A stretch of DNA of 64,000 bases from Eledone cirrhosa (lineage: Eukaryota). Shown here piece after piece: positions 5,332-59,297 of the stretch. The translations under genes and the position numbers were made by a program. The stretch covers positions 96,162,001-96,226,000 of the forward strand of contig OZ024740.1 of the NCBI GenBank assembly GCA_964016885.1, in the 5' to 3' direction. The notes beneath the pieces were generated by a model. That model made no database searches and had not been told where the DNA came from. It was given only the letters and a program-made list of their open reading frames with translations. Every line of letters begins with the position of its first letter. Positions within the stretch are counted from its first letter, which is position 1.

Positions 5332-5378
<47 letters not shown>

Positions 5379-5628
5379 TAGATTGTGTTAGAAACTCAAA
5401 ATAGTCTTTCATAATTAAATAGCTCAAAGAAGGGATCTTTCCGATCCGTGTAATATAATTGTATATATGAGAGGGATGAACACATATGTAAGAATACATG
5501 TGTCCAATTGCAAATGACCAAGTTAAATAGGTTGAAAAAATACTAATTTAAAACAATATGGTTTGCCTGACTCGATTTTAAGTAATCAATCAATACAAAA
5601 TAAAAACCTATATCTGGCAAGTGCCTTT

Positions 5629-5707
5629 GACACCCGGACAGAGCTAAATCTGTTACGCAATAATTATTATGTGAAAGCCAGAATTGTTGTACTCTTCTGC
5701 GGGTATC
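5629..5707 (-). ncRNA. Degenerate type I hammerhead ribozyme in a diverged relative of the 550-bp repeat family
   Basis: Minus strand: gatacccg CAGAAGA [helix II] GTAA caga tttagc tctg TC cgggtgtc. Helix I (8 bp), helix III and the GUC site are intact, with two core substitutions. Flank 5505-5620 resembles the 550-bp unit. Confidence 0.55.
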
Positions 5708-5899
5708 CAGGAAATGTGTACCTTCCACTTCAGTGGGTCTTAGAATACTGAACGATGTGCTAATATAAAAACACATTAAACTAGTATTTTTTCAACTTAG
5801 CTAACGTTTGCAAGTATTCTTATATCTGTGTTCTTCCTTCTCATATATCCAATTATATATATATATATATATATATAAAATAAAAAAAAGGTTCGCTCT

Positions 5900-17924: not shown

Positions 17925-18650
17925 AAGATAGACATAGAATATTCGAAAATATTCTGTATGTTTATAATAAACATTTTGAAGACCTAATCGCTATAGAATA
18001 GAATACGTCACGTATTACAATTAGATTCTCGATAAAAGCAAGGGAAGTAACAACCGCTCTTTCAAACCAGTTCCTGTACACAGCTAAGTATTCTATAAGT
18101 CTCTAGCTGTGTCATTCTCGATAAAAGCACTGGATATGTAATCCTGAAGATTTCTAATAAGAATGAAACGCGTAGGTTACTTCCCTTGCTTTTATCGAGA
18201 ATCTAATTGTAATACGTGACGTATTCTATTCTATAGCGATTAGGTCTTCAAAATGTTTATTATAAACATACAGAATATTTTCGAATATTCTATGTCTATC
18301 TTCACATATATATCGCTATTTCAGAGCATTTATTCCAATTTCTAATTTCTGCCGAACCGGCAACCGCTCTTTCAAACCAGTTCCTGTACACAGCTAAGTA
18401 TTCTATAAGTCTCTAGCTGTGTCATTCTCGATAAAAGCACTGGATATGTAATACTGAAGATTTCTAATAAGAATGAAACGCGTAGGTTACTTCCCTTGCT
18501 TTTATCGAGAATCTAATTGTAATACGTGACGTATTCTATTCTATAGCGATTAGGTCTTCAAAATGTTTATTATAAACATACAGAATATTTTCGAATATTC
18601 TATGTCTATCTTCACATATATATCGCTATTTCAGAGCATTTATTCCAATA
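17920..18650 (+). repeat. 310-bp HHR tandem repeat, second locus (short inverted arm plus about 2 units)
   Basis: HHR gtaatc CTGAAGA tttc taataa gaat GAAA CGCG TA ggttac at 18138-18180 and 18448-18490. Inverted arm 17920-18050; flanked by (TA)n. Confidence 0.92.
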
Positions 18651-18717
18651 TATATATATATATATAAAATAAAATAAAATGCATGAGTAAAATGTTCAAA
18701 ATTTCGCTTCGTTTATT

Positions 18718-19164: not shown

Positions 19165-20334
19165 GGAGGTGAGTTTTATTGTAGTACAATAAAGCAATGC
19201 AGATATCGGATAAGAAGCACTCTACAGTTTGTAGGACTGGAGTATACATAATATAAGATCAAAAGATGGTTAAAGGAGTTCCATGTATTTTATTATGCGC
19301 ATTTCAAAAACAAACATCATCATGCAATAATATTTGTGTTTTCATCAGATAAAACAGGAGAACATGATATGAAGGCTAAAAAACACCTGTGGACAGTGCA
19401 GTTTTAAATCAACATATGAAAAGTGGTTTTAGATTGACGTGTGATATTGGGAAAAATATTTTATTTAGAGAGGGGGGGTGGAAAGGATGAAAAGGGAAGG
19501 AGATGAGAGGGAGAGATGGTTTTTATAACAGAGAGTAGATATATAGTGTTACATAGAGAGGTTGAAAACCGTTGGAAGATAATGTATAAATTAAAAATTT
19601 TGAAAATTAACGAAGGGAGGATATGTACGAGGAAAAAAAAAATATATATTTTATTTAGGGATTGGGGGGGGGGTGAAAAAAAGGGGAGGAGATGAGAGTG
19701 AAGGTGGAGAGGGAGAGATGGGTGATAGAGAGAAAGAGATAGTTTTTATAACTGAGAAAAAGATATATTGTTTTAACATAGAGAGGTTGGGAACCGTTGG
19801 AAGATAATGTATAAATTAAAGGAATTTGAAAAATAACGAAGGGAATTTATGTATGAAGATAGAGAGAAAACAATAATAATTGTGGATGAATATTCTAACG
19901 TCAAAAAAAGAAATGTATGTATTGTGGCAATTTCAAAATTAACGAAGAGAAAAATTATTGAGGTTTGTGTGTAGAAGGATTTGAGAAAAAATGTGAAGTT
20001 AAAGTTTGTATATTGAAAGGATTGATAATATATGCGAATAAAGAGTTAATATGTATTAATAATGAGTTCGTTGATGGGGAGAAAAAAATAATAAATTAAG
20101 GATGAAATTGAGATTAAAAAGATTTATGATAGAGAGAAAAAATAATAATGATTGCGGATGAATATTCAAACGTCAAAAACAAGAAATGTATGTTATGATT
20201 TTATAAGGTGAAGATAGAATGAGGGTAATGAGTAAACAAGTATTATCGAGTGTATAATGCCCTTTAAAGTAAGGTAGATGGGTATATTTTAAAGAGGTGT
20301 ATGTATAAGTGCCTTTGAGAATAAAATACTAAAT

Positions 20335-21006
20335 ACTAAATCTCTTCCTTCCAATATTGAATTTCATAATAACAGTAATAGTACTCCCGACGTCATTGTA
20401 AACCCTAGGCTAACTTCTGTAAACCCAAATACAACGTCAAACACAACTTCGCTAAATGTTCATAATCCAACTCTAAATCAAGAAACTATTATTCCTATTA
20501 TTCCTATCGCAAATAACTTCTCCAATCCAATTCCTTCTATAGATAACACTAGATCACTCATTAATAATCTCTCTAATTGCAACTGCCGCATTAAAAATAA
20601 ATGTCCTCTCAACAACCATTGTCTCGATAAAAACTTAATTTATGAATGTAAAATTATAAATAGCACCAATTCCTTCACCTATTTTGGCTCCACTTCCACC
20701 TCTTTTAAAGCTCGTCTCTATAATCATCATTCATCTTTCAAATACAAACTTAAAAGAACCAACACTGCTCTCTCAGAACTCATATGGTCCTTAAAAGACA
20801 AAAACATTAAATATACCATCTTTTGGAAGAAGATTTCTTCTGCATCCTCATACTTGAACAGCTCTCTATCTAAAATCTGTAATCTCTGCCTAAATGAAAA
20901 ATTTACCATTATCTCTAACCTAGATTCTATAATAAACAGCCGTACAGATTTGTTTTCTATCTGCCTGCATAAATTCCATAGAACTTTTCACAAGGTATAC
21001 AGTTAA
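20335..21006 (+). pseudogene. GIY-YIG endonuclease C-terminal ORF fragment (no ATG, absent from ORF track)
   Basis: Manual translation from 20575: NCNCRIKNKCPLNNHCLDKNLIYECKII..YFGSTSTSFKARLYNHHSSF..ICNLCLNEK..ICLHK, TAA at 21004-21006. Confidence 0.9.
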
Positions 21007-22024: not shown

Positions 22025-22095
22025 TGTTTTATCTGATGAAAACACAAATATTATTGCATGATGATGTTTGTTTTTGAAATGCGCATAATAAAATA
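22025..22095 (+). ncRNA. Type I hammerhead in PLE pLTR (mirror copy ~19286-19356, minus)
   Basis: tgttttat CTGATGA aaacacaaatattatt gc atgatgatgtttgttttt GAAA TGCGCA TA ataaaata; palindromic helix III. Confidence 0.9.
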
Positions 22096-22652: not shown

Positions 22653-22696
22653 TATATATATATATACATATGTACATATATATATATATATATATA

Positions 22697-25680
22697 TATG
22701 AATATAGACATAGAATATTCGAAAATATTCTGTATGTTTATAATAAACATTTTGAAGACCTAATCGCTATAGAATAGAATACGTCACGTATTACAATTAG
22801 ATTCTCGATAAAAGCAAGGGAAGTAATCTACGCGTTTCATTCTCGTTAGAAATCATCAGGACTACATATCCAGTGCTTTTATCGAGAATGACACAGCTAG
22901 AGACTTATAGAATACTTAGCTGTGTACAGGAACTGGTTTGAAAGAGCGGTTGCCGGTCCGGCAGAAATTAGAAATTGGAATAAATGCTCTGAAATAGCGA
23001 TATATATGTGAATATAGACATAGAATATTCGAAAATATTCTGTATGTTTATAATAAACATTTTGAAGACCTAATCGCTATAGAATAGAATACGTCACGTA
23101 TTACAATTAGATTCTCGATAAAAGCAAGGGAAGTAATCTACGCGTTTCATTCTCGTTAGAAATCATCAGGACTACATATCCAGTGCTTTTATCGAGAATG
23201 ACACAGCTAGAGACTTATAGAATACTTAGCTGTGTACAGGAACTGGTTTGAAAGAGCGGTTGCCGGTCCGGCAGAAATTAGAAATTGGAATAAATGCTCT
23301 GAAATAGCGATATATATGTGAATATAGACATAGAATATTCGAAAATATTCTGTATGTTTATAATAAACATTTTGAAGACCTAATCGCTATAGAATAGAAT
23401 ACGTCACGTATTACAATTAGATTCTCGATAAAAGCAAGGGAAGTAATCTACGCGTTTCATTCTCGTTAGAAATCATCAGGACTACATATCCAGTGCTTTT
23501 ATCGAGAATGACACAGCTAGAGACTTATAGAATACTTAGCTGTGTACAGGAACTGGTTTGAAAGAGCGGTTGCCGGTCCGGCAGAAATTAGAAATTGGAA
23601 AAAATGCTCTGAAATAGCGATATATATGTGAATATAGACATAGAATATTCGAAAATATTCTGTATGTTTATAATAAACATTTTGAAGACCTAATCGCTAT
23701 AGAATAGAATACGTCACGTATTACAATTAGATTCTCGATAAAAGCAAGGGAAGTAATCTACGCGTTTCATTCTCGTTAGAAATCATCTATATATCGCTAT
23801 TTCAGAGCATTTATTCCAATTTCTAATTTCTGCCGGACCGGCAACCGCTCTTTCAAACCAGTTCCTGTACACAGCTAAGTATTCTATAAGTCTCTAGCTG
23901 TGTCATTCTCGATAAAAGCACTGGATATGTAGTCCTGATGATTTCTAACGAGAATGAAACGCGTAGATTACTTCCCTTGCTTTTATCGAGAATCTAATTG
24001 TAATACGTGACGTATTCTATTCTATAGCGATTAGGTCTTCAAAATGTTTATTATAAACATACAGAATATTTTCGAATATTCTATGTCTATATTCACATAT
24101 ATATCGCTATTTCAGAGCATTTATTCCAATTTCTAATTTCTGCCGGACCGGCAACCGCTCTTTCAAACCAGTTCCTGTACACAGCTAAGTATTCTATAAG
24201 TCTCTAGCTGTGTCATTCTCGATAAAAGCACTGGATATGTAGTCCTGATGATTTCTAACGAGAATGAAACGCGTAGATTACTTCCCTTGCTTTTATCGAG
24301 AATCTAATTGTAATACGTGACGTATTCTATTCTATAGCGATTAGGTCTTCAAAATGTTTATTATAAACATACAGAATATTTTCGAATATTCTATGTCTAT
24401 ATTCACATATATATCGCTATTTCAGAGCATTTATTCCAATTTCTAATTTCTGCCGGACCGGCAACCGCTCTTTCAAACCAGTTCCTGTACACAGCTAAGT
24501 ATTCTATAAGTCTCTAGCTGTGTCATTCTCGATAAAAGCACTGGATATGTAGTCCTGATGATTTCTAACGAGAATGAAACGCGTAGATTACTTCCCTTGC
24601 TTTTATCGAGAATCTAATTGTAATACGTGACGTATTCTATTCTATAGCGATTAGGTCTTCAAAATGTTTATTATAAACATACAGAATATTTTCGAATATT
24701 CTATGTCTATATTCACATATATATCGCTATTTCAGAGCATTTATTCCAATTTCTAATTTCTGCCGGACCGGCAACCGCTCTTTCAAACCAGTTCCTGTAC
24801 ACAGCTAAGTATTCTATAAGTCTCTAGCTGTGTCATTCTCGATAAAAGCACTGGATATGTAGTCCTGATGATTTCTAACGAGAATGAAACGCGTAGATTA
24901 CTTCCCTTGCTTTTATCGAGAATCTAATTGTAATACGTGACGTATTCTATTCTATAGCGATTAGGTCTTCAAAATGTTTATTATAAACATACAGAATATT
25001 TTCGAATATTCTATGTCTATATTCACATATATATCGCTATTTCAGAGCATTTATTCCAATTTCTAATTTCTGCCGGACCGGCAACCGCTCTTTCAAACCA
25101 GTTCCTGTACACAGCTAAGTATTCTATAAGTCTCTAGCTGTGTCATTCTCGATAAAAGCACTGGATATGTAGTCCTGATGATTTCTAACGAGAATGAAAC
25201 GCGTAGATTACTTCCCTTGCTTTTATCGAGAATCTAATTGTAATACGTGACGTATTCTATTCTATAGCGATTAGGTCTTCAAAATGTTTATTATAAACAT
25301 ACAGAATATTTTCGAATATTCTATGTCTATATTCACATATATATCGCTATTTCAGAGCATTTATTCCAATTTCTAATTTCTGCCGGACCGGCAACCGCTC
25401 TTTCAAACCAGTTCCTGTACACAGCTAAGTATTCTATAAGTCTCTAGCTGTGTCATTCTCGATAAAAGCACTGGATATGTAGTCCTGATGATTTCTAACG
25501 AGAATGAAACGCGTAGATTACTTCCCTTGCTTTTATCGAGAATCTAATTGTAATACGTGACGTATTCTATTCTATAGCGATTAGGTCTTCAAAATGTTTA
25601 TTATAAACATACAGAATATTTTCGAATATTCTATGTCTATATTCACATATATATCGCTATTTCAGAGCATTTATTCCAAT
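22697..25680. repeat. 310-bp hammerhead-bearing tandem array (retrozyme-like): about 3.5 inverted plus 6 forward units
   Basis: Exact 310-bp period, near-identical units, inversion junction at 23787/23788, (TA)n on both flanks. Confidence 0.97.
23929..23971 (+). ncRNA. Minimal type I hammerhead (also at 24239, 24549, 24859, 25169, 25479 plus; 22823, 23133, 23443 minus)
   Basis: gtagtc CTGATGA tttct aacg agaat GAAA CGCG TA gattac; canonical core, palindromic CGCG helix III. Confidence 0.95.
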
Positions 25681-25821
25681 ATATATATATATATATATAT
25701 ACATGTACACTTAAATCTATCCACGATTCAGAGTACTCACAACCTCTAACTGGATTACCTATAACGAAAACTTGTTATCCCTTATATACATAGACACATA
25801 TACATATGTTTATATATATAT

Positions 25822-30199: not shown

Positions 30200-30204
<5 letters not shown>

Positions 30205-30462
30205 AGTTAATATAAATTAATATATTTGATAAACACAAATACCAACATATTCATGTTTGTATTGTAAATGACCAAGTTAGCTAGATTGAAATATACTAAT
30301 AATAATAATACATTTTGCCTGTCTCGATTTAAGATAATAAATCAATAAAAACAAATCATATTGGCAATGGCCGTAGTGCTTGGACAAATTTAAATTTCAA
30401 AATCAAACCTGTTCCGTAGACTGTAAAAGACTGCCTGAGTTTTGAACTCATTATTATTGATA
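30200..30462 (-). repeat. Fragment of the 550-bp HHR repeat family with short inverted arm
   Basis: tacaagttaatataaattaa...ggccgtagtgcttggacaaatttaaatttcaaaatcaaacctgttccg, then inverted tgtaaaagactgcctgagttttgaactcattatta. Confidence 0.85.
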
Positions 30463-41453: not shown

Positions 41454-42876
41454 TATTAATAATGAGTTCAAACCTCAGGCAGTCCTTTACAATGAAAAAG
41501 CTCCAAGAAAGAAGTATTTCCGAGCCGTGTACAAGTTAATATAAATTAATATATTTGATAAACACAAATACCAACATATCCGTGTTTGTATTGTAAACGA
41601 CTAAAGTTAGCTAGATTGAAAAATACTAATTATAATAATACAGTTTGCCTGTCTCGATTTAAAATAATAAATCAATAAAAACAAAGCATATTGGCAAATG
41701 GCCGTGGTGCTTGGACAAATTTAAATTTCAAAATCAAACCTGTTCCGCAGATAGGTCTAAACCTTAAAATCCAAATATGTTTCGAAAACTGAAAAAAGTG
41801 GAAGAATACCGCATTTCTATCTCCTCAGCAAGCACCAGAAAAATTGGTATGTTCCACTTCAAAATATTTAAAAAGACTGTTTAACGCACATGGTTTTTCA
41901 CATACGGCCATCCAGTGTCTAGCTGCCCCATACTCGTGCTGCTAGAAATAACAGCCGTTTATATGGGGCTAAATTTAGCTCTACCTAAGGAGCAGTGATA
42001 CTATTAATAATGAGTTCAAACCTCAGGCAGTCCTTTACGATGAAAAAGGTCAAAGAAAGAAGTACTTCCGAGCCGTGTAATACAAGTTAAAATAAATTAA
42101 TATATTTGATAAACAGAAATACCAACATATCCGTGTTTGTATTGTAAACGACTAGAGTTATATAGATTGAAAAATACTAATATAATAATACAGTTTGCCT
42201 GTCTCGATTTAAAATAATAAATCAATAAAAACAAAGCATATTGGCAAATGGCCGTGGTGCTTGGACAAATTTAAATTTCAAAATCAAACCTGTTCCGCAG
42301 ATAGGTCTAAACCTTAAAATCCAAATATGTTTCGAAAAATGAAAAAATTGGAAGAATACCGCATTTTTATCTCCTCAGCAAGCACCAGAAAAATTGGTAT
42401 GTTCCACTTCAAAATATTTAAAAAGACTGTTTAACTCACATGGTTTTTCACATACGGTTATCCAGTGTCTAGCTGCCCCATACTCGTGCTGCTAGAAATA
42501 ACAGCCGTTTATATGGGGCTAAATTGAGCTCTACGTAAGGAGCAGTGATACTATTAATAAGGAGTTCAAACCTCAGGCAGTCCTTTACAATGAAAAAGCT
42601 CAAAGAAAGAAGTATTTCCGAGCCGTGTAATACAAGTTAATATAAATTAATTTTGAAATTAATTTATGAATTGATTTTGAAATTTAAATTTGTCCAAGCA
42701 CCACGGCCATTTGCCAATATGCTTTGTTTTTATTGATTTATTATTTTAAATCGAGACAGGCAAACTGTATTATTACAATTAGTATTTTTCAATCTAGCTA
42801 ACTTTAGTCGTTTACAATACAAACACGGATATGTTGGTATTCGTGTTTATCAAATATATTAATTTATATTAACTTG

Positions 42877-42880
<4 letters not shown>
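41452..42880 (-). repeat. 550-bp hammerhead-bearing tandem array (about 2.2 units plus inverted arm)
   Basis: Period 550. HHRs at 41705-41837 and 42255-42387 (minus). Inverted arm 42670-42880; (TA)n flanks. Confidence 0.92.
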
Positions 42881-44273: not shown

Positions 44274-44930
<657 letters not shown>

Positions 44931-48902: not shown

Positions 48903-49305
48903 TATATATTGGTAAAAGGAATAGAAAATGCTGACAAATTGTTCACTGTTGAAAAATGGTTTAATTAGGAATAAAAGAGAATTAGTAATTGTATGGGTTA
49001 GTATTCAGTTGTGGTTTTAAGTTTTTAAGTTTTTACCGATTGCGCATTTCTAAATGCTTTTCAAAAATAATTTTGAGATAGAGTGTCCGTGTTGTTTGCT
49101 CTGATCTGAGCAAACAACACGGACACTCTATCTCAAAATTATTTTTGAAAAGCATTTAGAAATTCGCAACCGGTAAAAACCTAAAAACTTAAAACCACGA
49201 CTGAATACTAACCCATACAATTACTAATACTCTTTTATTCCTAATTAAACCATTTTTCGACTGTGAACAATTTGTCAGCATTTTCTATTCCGTTTACCAA
49301 TATAT
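48903..49305. repeat. Fold-back (~195-bp arms) carrying a U3-A8-type hammerhead-like motif
   Basis: 48903-49101 is inverted at 49108-49305. ttt TTGAAAA gcattt ag aaatgc GCAA TCGG TA aaa at 49030-49067 (minus). Confidence 0.8.
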
Positions 49306-49913: not shown

Positions 49914-49956
<43 letters not shown>

Positions 49957-49959
<3 letters not shown>

Positions 49960-51378
49960 TTAACACAAATCAATATATTTGATAAACACAAATATCCTCA
50001 TATTTATGTTTGTATTGTAAATGACCAAGTTAGCTAGATAGAAATATACTAATAATAATATTACAGTTTGCCTATCATGACTGAAGATAATACATCATAA
50101 ATCAACAAAAACAAATTGTATTGGCAATGGCCGTAGTGCTTGGACAAATTTAAATTTCAAAATCAAACCTGTTCCGTAGACAGGTTTAAACCTTAAAATC
50201 CAAATATGTTTCAAATAATGAAAAAGTGGAAGAAAATACCGCATTTTCATCTCATTATTATTGATTTTTCACTGCTCCTTCGTTGAGCTGATTTTAGTCC
50301 CATACAAACGGCTGTTATTTCTAGCAGCACGAGTATGAGGCTTGCTAGACACTGGATAACCGCATGAGGTTACCTCGTGCGCTAAACAGTCTTCCTAAAT
50401 ATTTTGAAGCGGAACATATCAATTTGTATAGTGCTTGCTGAGGAGATCAAGATGCGGTATTTTCTTCCACTATTTCATTATTCGAAACACATTTGGATTT
50501 TAAGGTTTAAACCTGTCTACGGAACAGGTTTGATTTTGAAATTTAAATTTGTCCAAGCACTACGGCCATTGCCAATACAATATGTTTTTGTTGATTTATG
50601 ATGTATTATCTTAAGTCATGATAGGCAAATGTAATATATTTATTAGTATATTTCTATCTAGCTAACTTTGTCATTTACAATACAAACATAAATATGAGGA
50701 TATTTGTATTTATCAAATATATTGATTCGTGTTAACCTATATTACACGGCTCAGAAATACTCTTTCTCGAGCTATTTCATTGTAAATGATCGCCTGAGAT
50801 TTGAACTCATTATTATTGATATTTCACTGCTCCTTCGTTGAGCTGATTTTAGCCACATACAAACGGCTGTTATTTCTAGCAGCACGAGTATGAGGCTAGC
50901 TAGACACTGGATAACCGCATGAGGTTACCTCGTGCGCTAAACAATCTTCCTAAATATTTTGAAGTGGAACATACCAATTTTTATAGTGCTTGCTGAGGAG
51001 ATCAAAATGCGGAATTTTCTTCCACTTTTTCATTATTCGAAACACATTTTGATTTTAAGGTTTAAACCTGTCTACGGAACAGGTTTGATTTTGAAATTTA
51101 AATTTGTCCAAGCACTACGGCCATTGCCAATACAATTTGTTTTTGTTGATTTATGATTTATTATCTTAAGTCATGATAGGCAAACTGTAATATTATTATT
51201 AGTATATTTCTATCTAGCTAACTTGGTCATTTACAATACAAACATAAATATGAGGATATTTGTGTTTATCAAATATATTGATTTGTGTTAACCTATATTA
51301 CGCGGCTCAGAAATACTCTTTCTTCGAGCTATTTCATTGTAAATGATCGCCTGAGATTTGAACTCATTATTATTGATT
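49957..51378 (+). repeat. 555-bp hammerhead-bearing tandem array (inverted arm plus 2 units)
   Basis: Inverted arm 49957-50250, period 555, (TA)n flanks. Confidence 0.92.
50429..50562 (+). ncRNA. Large type I hammerhead with GUC site (second copy 50984-51117)
   Basis: tagtgcttg CTGAGGA [39-nt helix II] GAAAC [~62-nt hairpin] GTC caagcacta. Confidence 0.9.
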
Positions 51379-51380
51379 TG

Positions 51381-51412
<32 letters not shown>

Positions 51413-51709: not shown

Positions 51710-51900
51710 GAGCTTCTACAGGACTAGAACTGTTTCATTCGTGAGGAATCAACACGGGGCTCCGTGATGATACCTCACGAATGAAACAGTTCTAGTCCTG
51801 TAGAAGCTCTTCTATATTAAAGCGTTTATACTCTGCTATGTATTTATTATTGAGTACCATACTTACTATGTTTACCTCCGATTCAACTCGGAATAACTTA
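51703..51900. repeat. Short fold-back element with degenerate hammerhead-like core
   Basis: tagaagagcttctacaggactagaactgtttcattcgtgagg (51705-51746) is inverted at 51773-51814. GTGATGA..gaat GAAA cagttc TA gtcc. Confidence 0.7.
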
Positions 51901-52082: not shown

Positions 52083-53019
52083 GTAAACGCAGAAGTGTAT
52101 ATTTCAAAAAACGTTGCAACCGGAGGAACACAGGAATACGATACATTGGTTCGTGGAAACGTTCCCTGGCAAAGAGAGGGAAAAACGCATATAATACGTC
52201 ATTAATAGGAGGGGTGAAAAGCAATTACGCGCAAAAACAGAACCACGTTCATGGTATAAAATGAGTCGTAGACTAATGTTCACTTAGGTGGTTTATAGAG
52301 AAGTTCTCTGGCAATGAACGGAAAAAACGAAGATAATATGTTGTATGTGGACCGTGGAGAACAATTGCACGCAAAGACAAGACCACGTAAATGGTATAGC
52401 TGAAGTCGTAGACGAAAATTCTAACTGGGAAACCGAATGAATCTTCGCTTCAGAGTTAAGAATAAAGTAAATAAAATACAATACAGAGGTATTAGAAATT
52501 AAATAAATACATACACGCATGCAAATACGTACATACACAAGCATACGCGAAAACACTGCCATAGGTATACAAAACCACGCACATACAAATATGTGTATGT
52601 GTGTGTGCGTGTATACAAATAAATAAATAATTAAATAAACCTATATAAATAAATAAATACGTATATAACAAGCGCACACACATACCTACATGTAAATACA
52701 CAAACGTTCGGAGACGTAAGTCAACCAAAACATGAAGTACACATATACACACACGCAACATACGTACGAACCTGCACACTCACACAGAAGCAAAACTCCC
52801 GTATCCACATAACCAAACCATATGTACCAGAATATATAAAAAAAATTATACGCCATAACATATACAATCAAATATACGTACGAGAAAGTATACGTACCTT
52901 CACAAAACATACATGTAATATATACGTACCCATGCAAATAAGTAATGGTATAAACAAAACATATACTTAGCTACCCCATCACGACGTAAATTATCCACGT
53001 ATAGATGGTAGTATCCGTT

Positions 53020-55135
53020 AGGGTATAGCGTGTGGTTGTAATACAGGAAAGTTTTGTGCAATTCATGTTTACAAGCCGTAATCGCCTCAGATTGTTTGTT
53101 AAGGATGTGGTCTGTGGCGTAGAGTATTTTCAGGGCCTCAGCGGCGCAGTGGTCACATGGTCTTTTATTTCCGTTATACGATCTAGCCCTAGCTAGGATC
53201 TCCCAGTGTAACTTATATTGGGTGTGGTTGTCTTTTAGACTCCAGATATAAGCTGAAAGTGACGTCATATTCCTTCTTAGAGGGTAACGAAAAGAATGCG
53301 TATGAATGTAAAGACGCTGCTTGAATCTATTGGCGGTTAACCCTATGTAGGCCCTACGGGATGTGGCTGTTTCAACCTTACATTTGTAGACAATGTTACT
53401 AGAGAGGGATTTCCCGGATAGGTGGTAATCAACCCGATTCCTACAATTACAGTTAGTACTAACTTCCCGAGTTGCACGTGTTGCGACGGGTAGGAAGTTT
53501 AGCTAAATTTGAAGCTGTGATGTTTTGTGCAATGTTAGGAGTAGTAGAGTAAGACATTTTAATAGTATTTCTATTAAAAATGTTACTATATTTATGTGTA
53601 GGGGGAAAATTCTTCGTAATAAGGGAAAGAAAGATCTTAGCTGGCGGTGTGGCCACCTCCATATTATATAGTTGGTTATACCAACAAATGCGACGGGATC
53701 TATTTCTTCTAGGTCTATTTTCGTACTCAGTATATGCTTCCTTATCGACAAATCCACTCCGAGCAAGAGCTTCATTGTAATAAGTGGAATGGTCGTTGAA
53801 AATATACTTGTTAGTAGATAGACGGGAAAGCCTCAACGAAACGTTTCTTACCACGTTCTTAGTTATGCTGGTAGGATGGTTGGAATGTTTACTTATGGAA
53901 TTAAACGTATCATTCGGCTTTCTATGCGGGTAATACAACCCATTCGATAAATTGAGGGTAACATCGAGGTAATTACCGACCGAGAGATTGGCCTCAACCT
54001 GTATAGATAGGTTGAAGCCTTTAAAGAAGGCTGTGATTTCTTTTCTGAACATGTCGCAAGCACGAGGTCCGCACTTAGTTATTGTCAAAACACCATCATC
54101 ACGGCACAAACCACCGCCCGCGTTGGGGAATTCGTCCTTGATAGAGAAAAAAAGGAAAAGGCCGATAAGATCAGTACCTCCGCAGAATCGCTGGCGCCCA
54201 TACTCACGTCGAATGGGGTACTATTGGATTTTTTTATCCAAATAGAATGGCGAAATTAATCACCGACTTACGGGCATTGAGGGTGAAATCAACTTCGAAA
54301 TCCTTAACCACTGTGAGTGTTTTAGCGAAATTGATAGCTCTAAGGAGAAGTGGTAAAGTGATGGAGGAGTAGTAATTGTTGATGTCGAATTGGATAACAC
54401 GGCAATGTTCCTTGTTGTATATGCCGTTGAACCAATCAATCCCCGAAATATTTGTTCCACAGTGCAAGAGGGGCCAAACTTCTAATTTCTGGTATAATTC
54501 TATCAAGAATCCTTTTACTAAGCCTACCTAAATCGGACTTCGTAGGGGTAATAAGCCGAATAGAGGGGTTGTTCGGAAAATTGGATTTGTGATCCTTCAG
54601 GGTAAAGTGGGGGAGAAATAGGGTCCAGAGGTTCGTTCCGGTCAGGATGTTGAGATCAGAGGTGATGTTTAACCCAGCATCGTTGATTTCATTGATGACG
54701 CACCGATTAGTTTTACGGTAATCCTCAGTTACAGCATTATGTAGCAGTTGATGGTAAGTACTGCGCTCCACTTGATATAGGTTGCCAGTTTTGTCGGAAT
54801 GGACGTGCACTGCATTAGAATCCTTAATTAAACGAAATCTATTCTTCAGGTCCTGCTGGAAGGAATTGCTCCTATTCCGAAATTTGATACTCCGTATGAG
54901 TTTCAAGACATCATTTTCGAAGGGTAGCAATGCTGTGTTAAACGGGGGGTTATTATAGATTTTAAACCCACATTTATCCTGTTTGTTGTCTGCTTTTCGC
55001 GGATTATCGAAATAAAGGCACGCCAACGCAACCGTTTAATGAACGCGTCTGTTTTCTGTATCAGGAGTTTTAGGTATGTTTCCTGCTTGGTAAGGGTATG
55101 TTCTTTGTAGAAATATTCAGGATTTGTTTCTGCAT
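53020..55135 (-). pseudogene. Frameshifted Naiad RT-GIY-YIG ORF
   Basis: MQKQILNISTKNIP, FIKRLRWRA, DKTGNLY, LKDHK, RLITPTKSDLG, QFDINNYYSSI, CRDD, NYLDVTL, SNHP, CNC linker, CDHCAAE, ACKH. Confidence 0.92.
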
Positions 55136-57184
55136 GATGAATATAAGTCAATAGAGTGCTCAACCAAGGGAGCGAAATAGTAATAATAATAAATCTGAAG
55201 ACTAAAATTCAAAGATGGCTCGATAAGGATAAATATATATCAAATATATAAGAACCGTAGAGCAAATATTTATCAAAATAGCAGATTAAAGTTTAAGCAA
55301 AGAATCGCTGCTTTCACCCTTAACGGGATCTTCTGAAACTAACAAAGTCAATATGTAAACGCAGAAGTGTATATTTCAAAAAACGTTGCAACCGGAGGAA
55401 CACAGGAAGACGATACTTTGTTTCGTGGAAACGATCCCTGGCAAAGAACGGGAAAATACGAATATAATACGTAATTAATAGGAGCGGTGAAAAACAATTA
55501 CGTGCAAAGACAGAACCACGTTTATGGTATAAAAGAAATCGTAGACTAATGTTCTCTTAGGTGGTTTATAGAGACGTTCTCTGGCAATGAACGAAAAAAA
55601 ACGAAGATAATACGTCGTATGTGGACTTTGGAGAACAATTGCACGCAAAGACTAAACCACGTAAATGGTATAGCTGAAGTCGTAGACTAATATTCTAACT
55701 AGGAAACCGAATTAATCTCTGCTTCAGAGTTAAAAATAAAGTAAATAAAATACAATACAGAGGTAATAGAAATTAAATAAATACATACACGCATGCAAAT
55801 ACGTACATACACAAGCATACGCAAAAATACTTGCCATATGTATACAAAACCACGCACATATAAATATGTGTGTGTGTGCGTGTATACACATAAATAAATA
55901 ATTAAATAAACGTATATAAATAAATAAATACGTATATCACAAGCGCACACACATACCTACATGTAAATACACAAATGTTCGGAGACGTAAGTCAACCAAA
56001 ACACGAAGTACACATATACACACACCCAACATACGTCCGAACCTGCATACTCACACAGACGCAAAACTCCCGTATACACATAACCAAACTATGTGTACCA
56101 GAATATATGAAAAAAGTATACGCCATAACATATACAATCAAATATACCTACGAGAAAGTACGTACCTTCACAAAACATACATGTAATATATACTTACATA
56201 TGCAAATAAGTAATGGTATAAACAAAACATATACTTAGCTACCACATCAAGACGTAACATATCCACGTATAGATCGTACTATCCGTTAGGGTATAACGTG
56301 GGGCTGTAATACAGGAAGGTTTTGTGCAATTTATTTTTAAGATTTTTTGTTAAGGAAGTGGTCTGTGGCGTAGAGTATTTCCAGGGCCTCAGCGGCGCAG
56401 AGGTAAACAGGTCTTTTCTTCCGTTATACGATCTAGCCCTAGCTAGGATCTCCCAGTGTAACTTATATTGGGTGTGGTTGTCTTTTAGTCTTCAGATATA
56501 AGCTGAAAGTGACGTCATATTCCTTCTTAGAGATTTACGAATCTATTGGCGGTTAACATTATGTAGGCCCTACGACGCGTGGGTTTTTCAACCTTACATT
56601 TGTAGACAATGTTACTAGAGAGGCATTTCCCGGATAGGGGGCAATCAACCCGATTCCTACAATTACAGTTACTACTAACTACAGGGTTGCACGTGATCCT
56701 ACGGTTAGGTAGTTTTGCTAAATTTGAAGCTGTGATGTTATGTGCATGGTTAGGAGTCGTAGAGTAAGAAATTTTAATAGTATTTCTATTAAAAATGTTA
56801 CTATATTTATGTGTAGGGGGAAAATGCTTCGTAATAAGCGAAAGAAAGACCTTAGCTAATGGTGTGGCCACCTCCATATTATATGGTGGGTTATACCACC
56901 AGATGCGACGGGATCTATTTCTTCTAGGTCTATTTTCGTACTCAGTATATGTTTTTCACCGCTCCTATTAATGACGTATTATATTCGTTTTTTCCCGTTC
57001 TTTGCCAGGGAACGGTTCCACGAACCAAAGAATCGTCTTCCAGTGTTCCTCCGGTTGCAACGTTTTTTTAAATATTCACTTCTGCTTTTACAGATTGACT
57101 TTGTTAGCTTCAGAAGATCCCGTTAAGGGTGAAAGCAGCGATTGTTTGCTTAAACTTTAATCTGTTATTTTAATATATATATAT

Positions 57185-59297
57185 ATAAATGTAAGTATGT
57201 ATGTATACGTACATACATATATGTATACAGACGTACAGTAGCATGTATATGTATATATACATACAGGCACACATATATATATATGCACGTATCAGTTTAC
57301 CGAACATTTATTATAATGCTCGGTTTGTTCGTTTGTAAACAAACAAACAGCCTGAATTACGCCGTACAGTGTTTAGGCAAACACGTCACCCTTTTGTTCA
57401 ACACTGACACAGGAACGATGTACTGGTTTCAAGCTTATTGGCTATCGTCAGCACCGTATACCTTTCTGCCAGATGGTTGAACGTCCGGAAGTATATACTT
57501 TCCTTATGTAAATTAACGGCTGAGCAGCCTAATTTGCATATCGAGTGAGTTCAGTCGGCCAGGCGCACGGAAAACGATAAATGGAATAGAATGAAACGAA
57601 ATTTCATTTCTCACTCTATACGGCACTTACTTAAATGTAAGTATTAGCTAATAAGCTTGAAACTAGTACATCGTTCCTGCGTCAGTGTTGAACAAAATGG
57701 TTACGTGGTTGCCTAAACACTTTACGGCGTAATTCAGGCTGTTTGTCTGACTACAAACGAACAAACCGAGCATTATAATAAATGTTCGGTAAACTGATAC
57801 GTGCATATATATATATATGTGTGCATGTATGTATATATATATATACATGCTACTGTACGTCTGTATACATATATGTATGTACGTATACATACATACTTAC
57901 ATTTAAGTAAGTGCCGTACTAAGAGTGAGAAATGAAATTTCGTTTCATTCTATTCCATTTATCGTTTTCGGTGCGCCTGGCCGACTGAACTCACTCGATA
58001 TGCAAATTAGGCTGCTCAGCCGTTAATTTTCATTAGGAAAGTGTATACTTTCGTACGTTCAACCATCTGGCAGAAAGGTATACGGTGCTGACGATAGCTA
58101 ATAAGCTTGAAACTAGAACATCGTTCCTGTGTCAGTGTTGAACAAAAAGGTGACGTGGTTGCCTAAACACTTTACGGCGTAATCCAGGCTGTTTGTTTGT
58201 TTACAAACGAACAAACCGAGCATTATAATAAATGTTCGGTAAACTGATACGTGCATGTATATATGTGTGCCTGTATCTATATATATATATATATATACAT
58301 GCTACTGTACGTCTGTATACATACATGTATGTACGTATACATACATACTTACATTTAAGTAAGTGCCGTACTAAGAGTGAGAAATGAAATTTCGTTTCAT
58401 TCTATTCCATTTATCGTTTTCGGTGCCCCGGGCCGACTGAACTCACTCGATATGCAAATTAGGCTGCCCAGCCGTTAATTTTCACAAGGAAAGTATATAC
58501 TTTCGGACGTCAACCATCTGGCAGTAAGGTATACGGTGCTGACGATAGCTAATAAGCTTGAAACTAGTACATCGTTCCTGTGTCAGTGTTGAACAAAAAA
58601 GGTGACGTGGTTGCCTAAACACTGTACGGCGTAATTCAGGCTGTTTGTTTGTTTACAAACGAACAAACCCAGCATTATAATAAATGTTCGGTAAACTAAT
58701 ACGTTATTATATATATGTGTGCCTGTATGTATATATATACATGCTACTGTACGTCTGTATACATATATGTATGTACGTATACATACATACTTACATTTAT
58801 GTAAGTGCCGTACTAAGATTGAGAAATGAAATTTCGTTTCATTCTATTCCATTTATCGTTTTCGGTGCTTCTGGCTGACTGAACTCACTCGATATGCAAA
58901 TTAGGCTGCTCAACCGTTAATTTTCATAAGGAAAGTCTTATACTTTCGGACGTTCAACCATCTGGCAGAAAGGTATACGGTGCTGACGATAGCTAATAAG
59001 CTTGAAACTAGTACATCGTTCCTGTGTCAGTGTTGAACAAAATGGTAACGTGGTTGCCTACACACTGTACGGCGTAATTCAGGCTGTTTGTTTGTTTACA
59101 AACGAACAAACCGAGCATTATAATAAACGTTCGGTAAACTGATACGTGCATATATATATATATGTGTGCCTGTATGTATATATATACATGCTACTGTACG
59201 TCTGTATACATATATGTATGTACGTATACATACATACTTACATTTAAGTAAGTGCCGTACTAAGAGTGAGAAATGAAATTTCGTTTCATTCTATTCC

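Follow-up and report, generated by a model that had tools for sequence, protein, structure and literature searches.

The closest described counterparts of the element reported here, a 555-bp tandem repeat with a hammerhead motif in Eledone cirrhosa, are the metazoan non-long-terminal-repeat (non-LTR) retrozymes. Their tandem units encode no protein, are low in GC and contain a single type I hammerhead, and they are found as dispersed monomers to short arrays in genomes rich in Penelope-like elements (PLEs) (PMC7229834; bioRxiv 10.64898/2026.07.22.740005). One account gives metazoan units of 170-400 nt, already represents molluscs with mussel retrozymes of 350-390 bp, and reports that retrozymes of coral, mussel and axolotl cleave and circularize (PMC7229834); another gives units of 51-972 bp and a PLE origin for animal retrozymes (bioRxiv 10.64898/2026.07.22.740005). 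A second group comprises the endonuclease-containing (EN+) PLEs, whose insertions present partial tandems, an inverted truncated partner, a tail at one end and (TA)n targets (PMC8557442); in work on a purified PLE, reverse transcription started at two internal sites, to which the tail corresponds (PMC11167929). Helix III of animal hammerheads usually counts 1-2 bp, and type I hammerheads with a large helix III are described from fungal and protist PLEs, such as that of Serpula lacrymans, where the fungal motif cleaves singly (PMC4209133). Finally, pseudoknot hammerheads have a very short helix II proper, the region of which pairs with a sequence on the 5' side of helix I (PMC3088659, PMC11300833, RF03152); where stem II consists of a single pair, the hammerhead relies on a pseudoknot (PMC3088659).

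We analyzed a stretch of 64,000 nucleotides of the E. cirrhosa genome (3.0 Gb; assembly GCA_964016885.1, contig OZ024740.1, positions 96,162,001 to 96,226,000), hereafter the window, to which all coordinates refer. A sequence-only reading had flagged a repeat with an oversized hammerhead at 50-51 kb. The flagged locus is one insertion of a non-coding repeat family with units of 500-560 bases and a hammerhead motif; none of the window's open frames of at least 90 codons overlaps it. The family resembles the metazoan retrozymes in several respects: its tandem units are non-coding and low in GC, each contains one type I hammerhead, they are dispersed as monomers to short arrays in a PLE-rich genome, and the unit length lies within 51-972 bp. 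It differs from them by a helix III of about 28 bp instead of 1-2, a helix II with 2-3 firm pairs (in subfamilies A, B and F, defined below), a conserved pairing of the 5' flank, and arrays that rarely exceed 2-3 units; it is known here from DNA alone. With the EN+ PLEs and their pseudo-LTRs, above all those of the Hydra clade (PMC8557442, PMC11167929), it shares 5' truncation, partial tandems, an inverted truncated partner, a two-site tail, (TA)n targets and a type I hammerhead, but it lacks an open reading frame and its tail measures 71-85 nt, compared with 30-40 nt in theirs. The Serpula-type hammerheads (PMC4209133) are alike in topology, large helix III and PLE context, a likeness drawn from their description in words, and differ in belonging to EN-deficient telomeric PLEs and in presenting no recognizable contact between helices I and II. 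In the pseudoknot hammerheads, the pseudoknot counts about 6 bp and comes from an upstream hairpin loop, whereas the flank pairing of the 555-bp family extends over 15-21 bp, split into three segments, and its subfamilies do not all have an upstream hairpin in common. We consider it probable that this family is a non-LTR retrozyme that is in effect a non-autonomous PLE, with a conserved hammerhead whose helix II is propped by the flank, and that it is copied into (TA)n by a borrowed PLE enzyme.

A hammerhead with a long helix III and its conservation across subfamilies

The first hammerhead copy of the flagged locus (50429-50562, plus strand) opens with helix I, formed by TAGTGCTTG (50429-50437) and CAAGCACTA (50554-50562). 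The core CTGAGGA (50438-50444) is followed by a helix II region of 39 nt (50445-50483), GAAA (50484-50487) and C15.2 (50488), and an insert of 62 nt then separates these from GTC (50551-50553), whose last base is C17. The insert forms the long helix III (50487-50552), with about 28 bp, six of them G.U, closed by the UNCG-type loop sequence cUACGg (50517-50522). UNCG loops are extra stable. A second hammerhead (50984-51117, plus strand) lies 555 nt downstream, with its core at 50993 and its GTC ending at C17, position 51108. The split of GAAAC from GTC by a long hairpin, as the sequence-only reading had described it with a GUC site, is thus present in both copies. Judging from this layout, cleavage is predicted after 50553 and after 51108 and would free a monomer of 555 nt (50554-51108). 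That reading had proposed a unit of 550 bp, which holds for a minus-strand locus with hammerheads at 42378-42264 and 41828-41714 (period 550); the period of the flagged locus is 555. The minus-strand copies carry helix I as TGGTGCTTG/CAAGCACCA, a single double change from A-U to G-C relative to the flagged copies. This covariation between the two loci had been offered as support; the change exists, but it is one event and weak alone, and the real support comes from other subfamilies.

The commonest helix III of the flagged subfamily contains 28 pairs (18 A-U, 4 G-C and 6 G.U) and one U-U mismatch, with a folding energy of -23.0 kcal/mol on the sense strand and -10.0 kcal/mol on the antisense strand; among the commonest copies, the sense strand of helix III folds better by 12-18 kcal/mol. 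We searched for this architecture with a descriptor requiring a helix I of at least 8 bp, the core, and a helix III of at least 40 nt folding below -15 kcal/mol. It returned four matches in the window and none in 10 block-shuffled windows. Folding z-scores of the four window copies ranged from -3.1 to -3.95; the antisense of the first copy also reached -3.28, and the z-score alone is therefore not strand-specific. Rfam returned no hammerhead for the window among the matches listed (150 of 154), and none among the 11 rows for 50380-50600. Against the model RAGATH-1-hammerhead (RF03152), subfamily E scored 15.6 bits relative to a cut-off of 56.3, and subfamily A gave no match. With no upstream hairpin common to the subfamilies either, we rejected membership in the RAGATH-1 or pseudoknot hammerheads. 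The sequence-only reading had expected length-limited searches to miss the motif: Rfam does miss it, but it hardly detects the short-helix relative either, so helix III is not the whole reason.

Own-genome searches identified six subfamilies, with units of 555 (A, that of the flagged locus), 550 (B), 558 (D), about 513 (F), 498 (C) and 518 nt (E). Each search scored the best 40 of 575-2053 first-look candidates, so the samples lean to copies near the query. The six units are 56-81% identical outside helix III, B, the subfamily of period 550, is 83% identical to the flagged subfamily, and the GC-content of the family is 33-37%. Scored matches are spread over many contigs. One family insertion was found in 60 arbitrary stretches of 10 kb (600 kb), which scales to about 5,000 insertions genome-wide with a very wide interval (about 130-28,000); the family is likely present at thousands of genomic places. 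Diverged relatives, 68-80% identical to the nearest subfamily, were observed at four loci (L174:379-970, L189:660-882, L013:537-718 and L072:758-1091), and therefore more than six subfamilies exist.

Helix III varies in length across the subfamilies, from 5-6 to about 28 bp: the insert counts 62-64 nt in A, B, D and F, and 12 and 16 nt in C and E, respectively. A tree built without helix III splits C and E from the rest with 100% support; being unrooted, it is compatible with gain as well as loss of the long helix. A long helix III is the hallmark of a single clade (A, B, D and F); it is not essential, since C and E have spread without one. An origin of the long helix by duplication of the short C hairpin was rejected, as both ends match at 8-9 of 14 positions, no better than internal offsets. 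We also considered RNA-editing scars, which we did not accept: the excess in B and D reached p = 0.014-0.015 when counted by copies but 0.24 and 0.06 when counted by sites (24 comparisons), and sense-strand A>G versus T>C changes numbered 31 versus 41 in A, 35 versus 50 in C, 33 versus 22 in B and 40 versus 30 in D.

The ribozyme is well conserved relative to the units that carry it. Across 26 hand-picked copies of subfamilies A to E, whose units are 57-81% identical, the positions G5, A6, A9, G10.1, C11.1, A13, A14, A15.1, C15.2 and GUC are invariant. Among parsed copies, CTGAGGA, GAAA and GTC were respectively found in 32, 37 and 39 of the 39 copies of A, in 30, 30 and 28 of the 32 copies of B, and in all 22 copies of F, and the core is kept in 23 of 26 copies of E. 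Subfamily D presents U3-A8 in 31 of 31 copies, with the core TTGATAA in 30 of them; the exchange of C3-G8 and U3-A8 is a known natural and functional covariation of hammerheads (PMC3088659, PMC4209133). Subfamily C (loci L060-L085), which is high-copy, carries A at core position 4 in 28 of 30 copies, and its short helix III can self-dimerize over 16 pairs in 26 of 30.

Helix I presents changes on both sides at seven of its nine pairs. In the alignment of 26 copies, 93.1% of cells are paired, compared with 85.1% in shuffles and 18-50% in slid controls, and 73 cells changed on both sides, compared with 26.9 in shuffles. Independent events are few, as there are five or six lineages, but each subfamily has its own helix I sequence, and within D a further A-U/G-C swap separates 22 from 7 copies. 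The pair 10.2-11.2 covaries between A-U and C-G, and the base of helix III is invariant. For the 24 pairs counted in the long helix III, 11 were invariant, eight changed on one side, one changed on both sides in a single sequence, and four deviated only through unpaired cells. The support for this helix consists of pair-keeping one-sided changes, a G.U-only bias (6 G.U pairs in A to 9-10 in D, with no 1x1 A.C mismatch in the commonest copies), and the loop sequence c-U-N-C-G-g, present in 28 of 39 A, 29 of 32 B and 30 of 31 D copies. The claim that covariation supports the oversized hammerhead stands for helix I and the core, but not for the long helix itself, and helix III is short in C and E; a multi-copy alignment, proposed as a check, returned the conserved core and pairing. 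The core, the three helices with an open-ended helix I and the covariation agree with a type I hammerhead. Its invariant core, helix I covariation and C3-G8/U3-A8 swap show, at the level of sequence, that it is under selection.

The same reading had described the motif as the opposite of the minimal, dimer-dependent PLE hammerhead. We indeed rejected membership in that type, whose helix III is absent or 1-2 bp with a palindromic loop, as helix III counts 28 bp in A and B; however, monomer cleavers with a large helix III are known in fungal and protist PLEs. Likewise, the unit is larger than the 170-400 nt of one account (PMC7229834), as had been claimed, but falls within the 51-972 bp of the other (bioRxiv 10.64898/2026.07.22.740005). 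Size and long helix are less exceptional than first thought, and the headline of the sequence-only reading is true but modest.

Pairing between the 5' flank and helix II

Helix II counts only 2-3 firm pairs in A, B and F, within a region of 35-42 nt. In all six subfamilies, helix II is paired, through its 5' strand and loop, with the 27 nt that lie upstream of helix I; this pairing counts 15-21 bp and is split into three segments. Dinucleotide-shuffled flanks paired as well in 5, 0, 0, 0 and 3 of 1000 trials for A, B, C, D and E, respectively (137 of 158 copies were kept, dropping those without their own flank). Subfamily F came to light only once the idea of this pairing existed; there, 8 of 1000 shuffles did as well. 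Restricting the test to the distal part of the flank in E gave no significant result (39 and 96 of 1000). In C, D and F, helix II finds its best partner in the flank of its own subfamily; for A and B, whose flanks are nearly identical, the best partner is the A/B flank. At one flank-pairing position, the 32 copies of B comprise 15 G-C, 5 G.U, 11 A-U and no A.C combinations, with one copy unscored.

At the flagged locus, the flank strand of copy 1 (50406-50427, plus strand) is mutated; its duplex reaches -7.3 kcal/mol and 116 of 200 shuffles were equally good. The flank strand of copy 2 (50961-50982, plus strand; partner strand at about 51004-51029) reaches -11.3 kcal/mol, with 9 of 200 shuffles equally good.

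In nested folding, the full flank pairing excludes helix I (P < 0.5) in 3 of 33 A, 16 of 29 B, 18 of 24 C, 10 of 27 D and 15 of 24 E copies, and the folds with and without helix I differ by about 1-4 kcal/mol. The program folds nested structures only: pseudoknots are outside its model, so that it is forced to choose between helix I and the flank pairing. The flank pairing may be a pseudoknot standing in for helix II, or a lock. We favor the pseudoknot, because F, A and B would otherwise have almost no helix II.

Insertion anatomy, a candidate enzyme donor and neighboring features

The flagged insertion has two arms. The main arm (50245-51377, plus strand) contains about 2.03 units of 555 nt, and an inverted, 5'-truncated arm of 301 nt (49953-50253, minus strand) presents helix III and GUC without the CUGAGGA core. 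The (TA)n microsatellite that served as target, recognized from its sequence, flanks the insertion at 49917-49957 on the left and at 51381-51412 on the right. The inverted arm ends at the first and the main arm at the second of two fixed 3' sites; between these sites lies a tail (51298-51377, plus strand, with site 1 at 51298 and site 2 at about 51377), which measures 82 nt in subfamily A. The locus is also present in three contig sets, all from a single sample of unrecorded kind, which are silent on expression, RNA ends and circles.

This arrangement recurs across the genome. We counted arms of at least 60 nt and at least 84% identity lying off the locus edges, with identical arms counted once. 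The large majority (196 of 229) end at one of two sites located 81-85 nt apart, at +189 and +271 from the cut site in A; the sites of F are 71 nt apart. (TA)n follows 172 of the 196 fixed-site ends. Among 73 head-to-head pairs, 52 join site 1 with site 2, one joins like with like, and 20 include an off-site end. The 5' ends are variable, and 77 of 179 arms exceed one unit, reaching about 3.2 units. The family thus presents the traits of a non-autonomous PLE (5' truncation, partial tandems, an inverted partner, two fixed 3' ends and a (TA)n target) together with those of a non-LTR retrozyme, namely hammerheads in consecutive units (50438/50993 and 42378/41828), dispersal, high copy number and low GC-content.

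The 5' ends also carry a mark of the long helix. At loci chosen by a query located 3' of the ribozyme, arms stop at +1 to +25 after the cut site in 9 of 39 passages in A and 12 of 31 in D, compared with 0-4 in neighboring windows of 25 nt, whereas the corresponding stops in C (4 of 33) and E (4 of 38) match the neighbor rate. Overall, long-helix A and D present 21 stops in 70 passages and short-helix C and E present 8 in 71 (p = 0.007, a value inflated by stops that represent two arms of one insertion or a duplicated locus). Samples covering the ribozyme concur (14 of 116 versus 2 of 80 arms stop; p = 0.017). The stops cluster at +9 to +22, just beyond the 3' strand of helix I, and almost no 5' end lies at +1; in several insertions the two arms halt there together, and arms are therefore not independent. 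In the long-helix clade, the RNA template had a barrier or an end past the ribozyme. This mark may reflect a cleaved end with helix I still paired, or a stall at the uncut structure. A pile-up of 5' ends at the second initiation site, corresponding to a full turn of a circle, was not used as evidence for circles: it reaches significance only in A (14 of 70), with a marginal signal in D (6 of 36) and none in B, C and E.

Fragments of PLE reverse transcriptase and GIY-YIG endonuclease abound in the window; Pfam recognized GIY-YIG in two of 10 PLE fragments (one below the cut-off) and no reverse transcriptase family. One abundant PLE family is a candidate source of the enzyme. This autonomous family is represented in the window by a decayed copy at 52450-55800 on the minus strand (52450-57180; L187-L196), and many of its copies have open frames of about 713 codons. 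Its motifs are those listed for the Hydra clade (RWR for RWK, DKT, CxCx5C, CxxC and CxH), an assignment made from motifs. Its copies terminate within (TA)n at either of two sites, which are separated by 89 nt. No hammerhead was found within the element in the 11 loci scanned, whereas hammerheads are called universal in Hydra elements (PMC8557442). Two of its 255 family loci (L186:958-6789 and L287:1-3797) fuse directly to a subfamily E arm, at joints without (TA)n and with 5'-truncated PLE copies. At L186, site 1 of the PLE lies at one outer end and site 2 of E at the other, with (TA)n at both outer ends. These fusions, which concern E and not A, are suggestive of a Hydra-type PLE as enzyme donor. 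No autonomous element using a unit of the 555-bp family as pseudo-LTR was found in 9 of 165 PLE-protein loci, 31 PLE loci and 46 of 255 candidate-PLE loci, a search in which seven further near neighbors were judged by coordinates only and one PLE family was compared.

Other members of the family lie in the window. The subfamily B insertion (41457-42879, minus strand) consists of a minus arm with about 2.2 units of 550 nt (41457-42651) and an inverted arm (42671-42879). An older subfamily C insertion (5374-5860, minus strand) presents a hammerhead at about 5710-5630 with a short helix III, the core CAGAAGA and a decayed GAAA, along with a short inverted arm. A truncated two-armed copy without ribozyme core lies between (TA)n tracts at 30200-30462 (minus strand).

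The window also contains hammerheads of other kinds. An inverted pair (22033-22087, plus strand, and 19348-19294, minus strand), with a minimal palindromic helix III and a helix II region of 35-36 nt, borders a GIY-YIG fragment (20293-21006), as typical for PLE pseudo-LTR ribozymes; flank pairing was not significant in this pair. Compact hammerheads with an extra base after A9 were found at 57451 (minus), 58539 (plus) and 58983 (plus), in a tandem family of 445-452 bp that is unrelated to the 555-bp family. A hammerhead-like motif at 43886-43798 (minus) presents the core TTGATGA, a helix II region of 45 nt and a helix III insert of 31 nt. Two tandem arrays of a 310-bp unit (18051-18654 and 22690-25685) are 97-100% identical and in opposed orientation; the descriptors used listed no hammerhead in them. 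Finally, perfect or near-perfect fold-backs adjoining (TA)n (49055-49154, 44374-44795 and 51713-51807) are probably very short two-armed insertions of other elements.

Weighing the explanations and meaning for the family

Under the retrozyme reading that we favor, tandem copies would be transcribed and each GUC is likely cut by its hammerhead as a single motif. The RNA would thereby self-cleave to monomers of 555 nt, which could be ligated to circles by analogy with metazoan retrozymes (PMC7229834). With its long helix III the ribozyme would no longer need to dimerize, and this helix probably hinders reverse transcriptase; the flank pairing would prop the helix II of 2-3 bp as a pseudoknot. 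A Hydra-type PLE would donate the enzyme, and target-primed reverse transcription would proceed from both sides of the break with two internal starts, by analogy with the purified PLE (PMC11167929).

Several observations weigh against this reading. Of the four tree-aware covariation measures, the two least sensitive to relatedness are not above shuffles (10 versus 9.7 pairs with a double change, and 23 versus 28 further pair types). The core change of subfamily C and its spread suggest that fast cleavage is dispensable. The helix II base pair has a probability of about 0 in nested folds of all five units tested, and the full flank pairing displaces helix I in four subfamilies (B, C, D and E), so that the newly made RNA may adopt an inactive fold. 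The flank pairing is itself decayed in the flagged copy at 50438 and is not subfamily-specific in E. The stop mark is weakened by the double counting noted above, and 49 of 70 passages in A and D read through the cut site; since most arms do so, uncut multimers or circles are the main template. Regarding the donor, tail spacing differs between the retrozymes (81-85 nt) and the candidate PLE (89 nt), a shared tail sequence was rejected (125 of 500 shuffles were as good), and L287 could represent a later PLE insertion. Among published systems, eight of nine Xenopus retrozymes did not cleave (bioRxiv 10.64898/2026.07.22.740005), and an anole PLE hammerhead needed protein and was dispensable for insertion in vitro (PMC11167929).

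It is possible, but on the unlikely side, that in the same element the flank pairing is a lock, not a support, which would form first during transcription, hold the core in a hairpin loop and keep the RNA or circle uncut until refolding or binding of a protein. The prefix up to GAAA folds into the flank hairpin in the one copy tested from each of A to F, the folds with and without helix I are close in energy, and in C and E one strand has two partners, the full helix II or the flank. Most animal retrozyme circles present no predicted self-block and must be blocked otherwise (PMC7229834), a place that such a lock could fill. However, without the flank pairing the helix II of F and of A/B would shrink to very little, 30 of 33 A copies favor helix I, and the competition comes from a nested-only program that forces a choice the RNA may not face. 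A ribozyme that is structurally kept but barely active in vivo seems more doubtful still. These elements would then be orphan PLE pseudo-LTRs copied from read-through tandems without any circle, their long helix serving stability or protein binding. Such a scenario is consistent with arms that mostly measure less than 1.5 units, with the lack of a 5'-end pile-up at +1, with the core change of C, and with hammerhead mutants that had no effect on anole PLE insertion in vitro (PMC11167929); but the core and the C3-G8/U3-A8 pair are kept despite up to 44% divergence of the units, which is hard to explain without catalysis, and the retrozymes of coral, mussel and axolotl do cleave and circularize.

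A satellite or fold-back repeat acting at the level of DNA, with a chance likeness to hammerheads, is highly improbable. In favor of it speak the AT-rich sequence (33% GC), the many inverted repeats of the window, and an antisense strand that also folds better than shuffles; against this stand the lack of matches in 10 shuffled windows, the G.U bias of one strand, the covariation of core and helices, and the dispersed, 5'-truncated copies with fixed 3' ends. Going beyond the retrozyme reading that we favor, we tentatively suggest, as a speculative combination, a self-locking animal retrozyme: a switch in the flank would block self-cutting of the circle, one clade would have gained a helix III of 28 bp that turned a ribozyme capable of dimerizing into a stand-alone cutter and left the stop mark in reverse transcription, and the family would ride on a Hydra-clade PLE without a hammerhead of its own. 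If true, this would provide the self-block that animal retrozymes are said to mostly lack.

The class itself, retrozymes, is known; what is new is the covarying flank pairing in six subfamilies and the helix-linked excess of 5' truncations. We found no account of the 555-bp family or of flank pairing in animal retrozymes in the literature searched, which left out most subscription journals and the hammerhead-listing supplements of PMC8557442, PMC7229834 and PMC4209133. Such families are probably more numerous than counted so far, because this architecture escapes descriptor and Rfam searches. The anatomy of the insertions lends genomic support to the proposed mobilization of retrozymes by PLE enzymes. 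Finally, the six subfamilies constitute a natural series in which the length of helix III, the core (C3-G8, U3-A8 and A4) and the strength of helix II vary while one upstream pairing is kept. Short transcripts from this series would allow two questions to be addressed directly: by what means the circles of animal retrozymes escape self-cleavage, and whether cleavage plays a part in a spread that is driven by PLEs.

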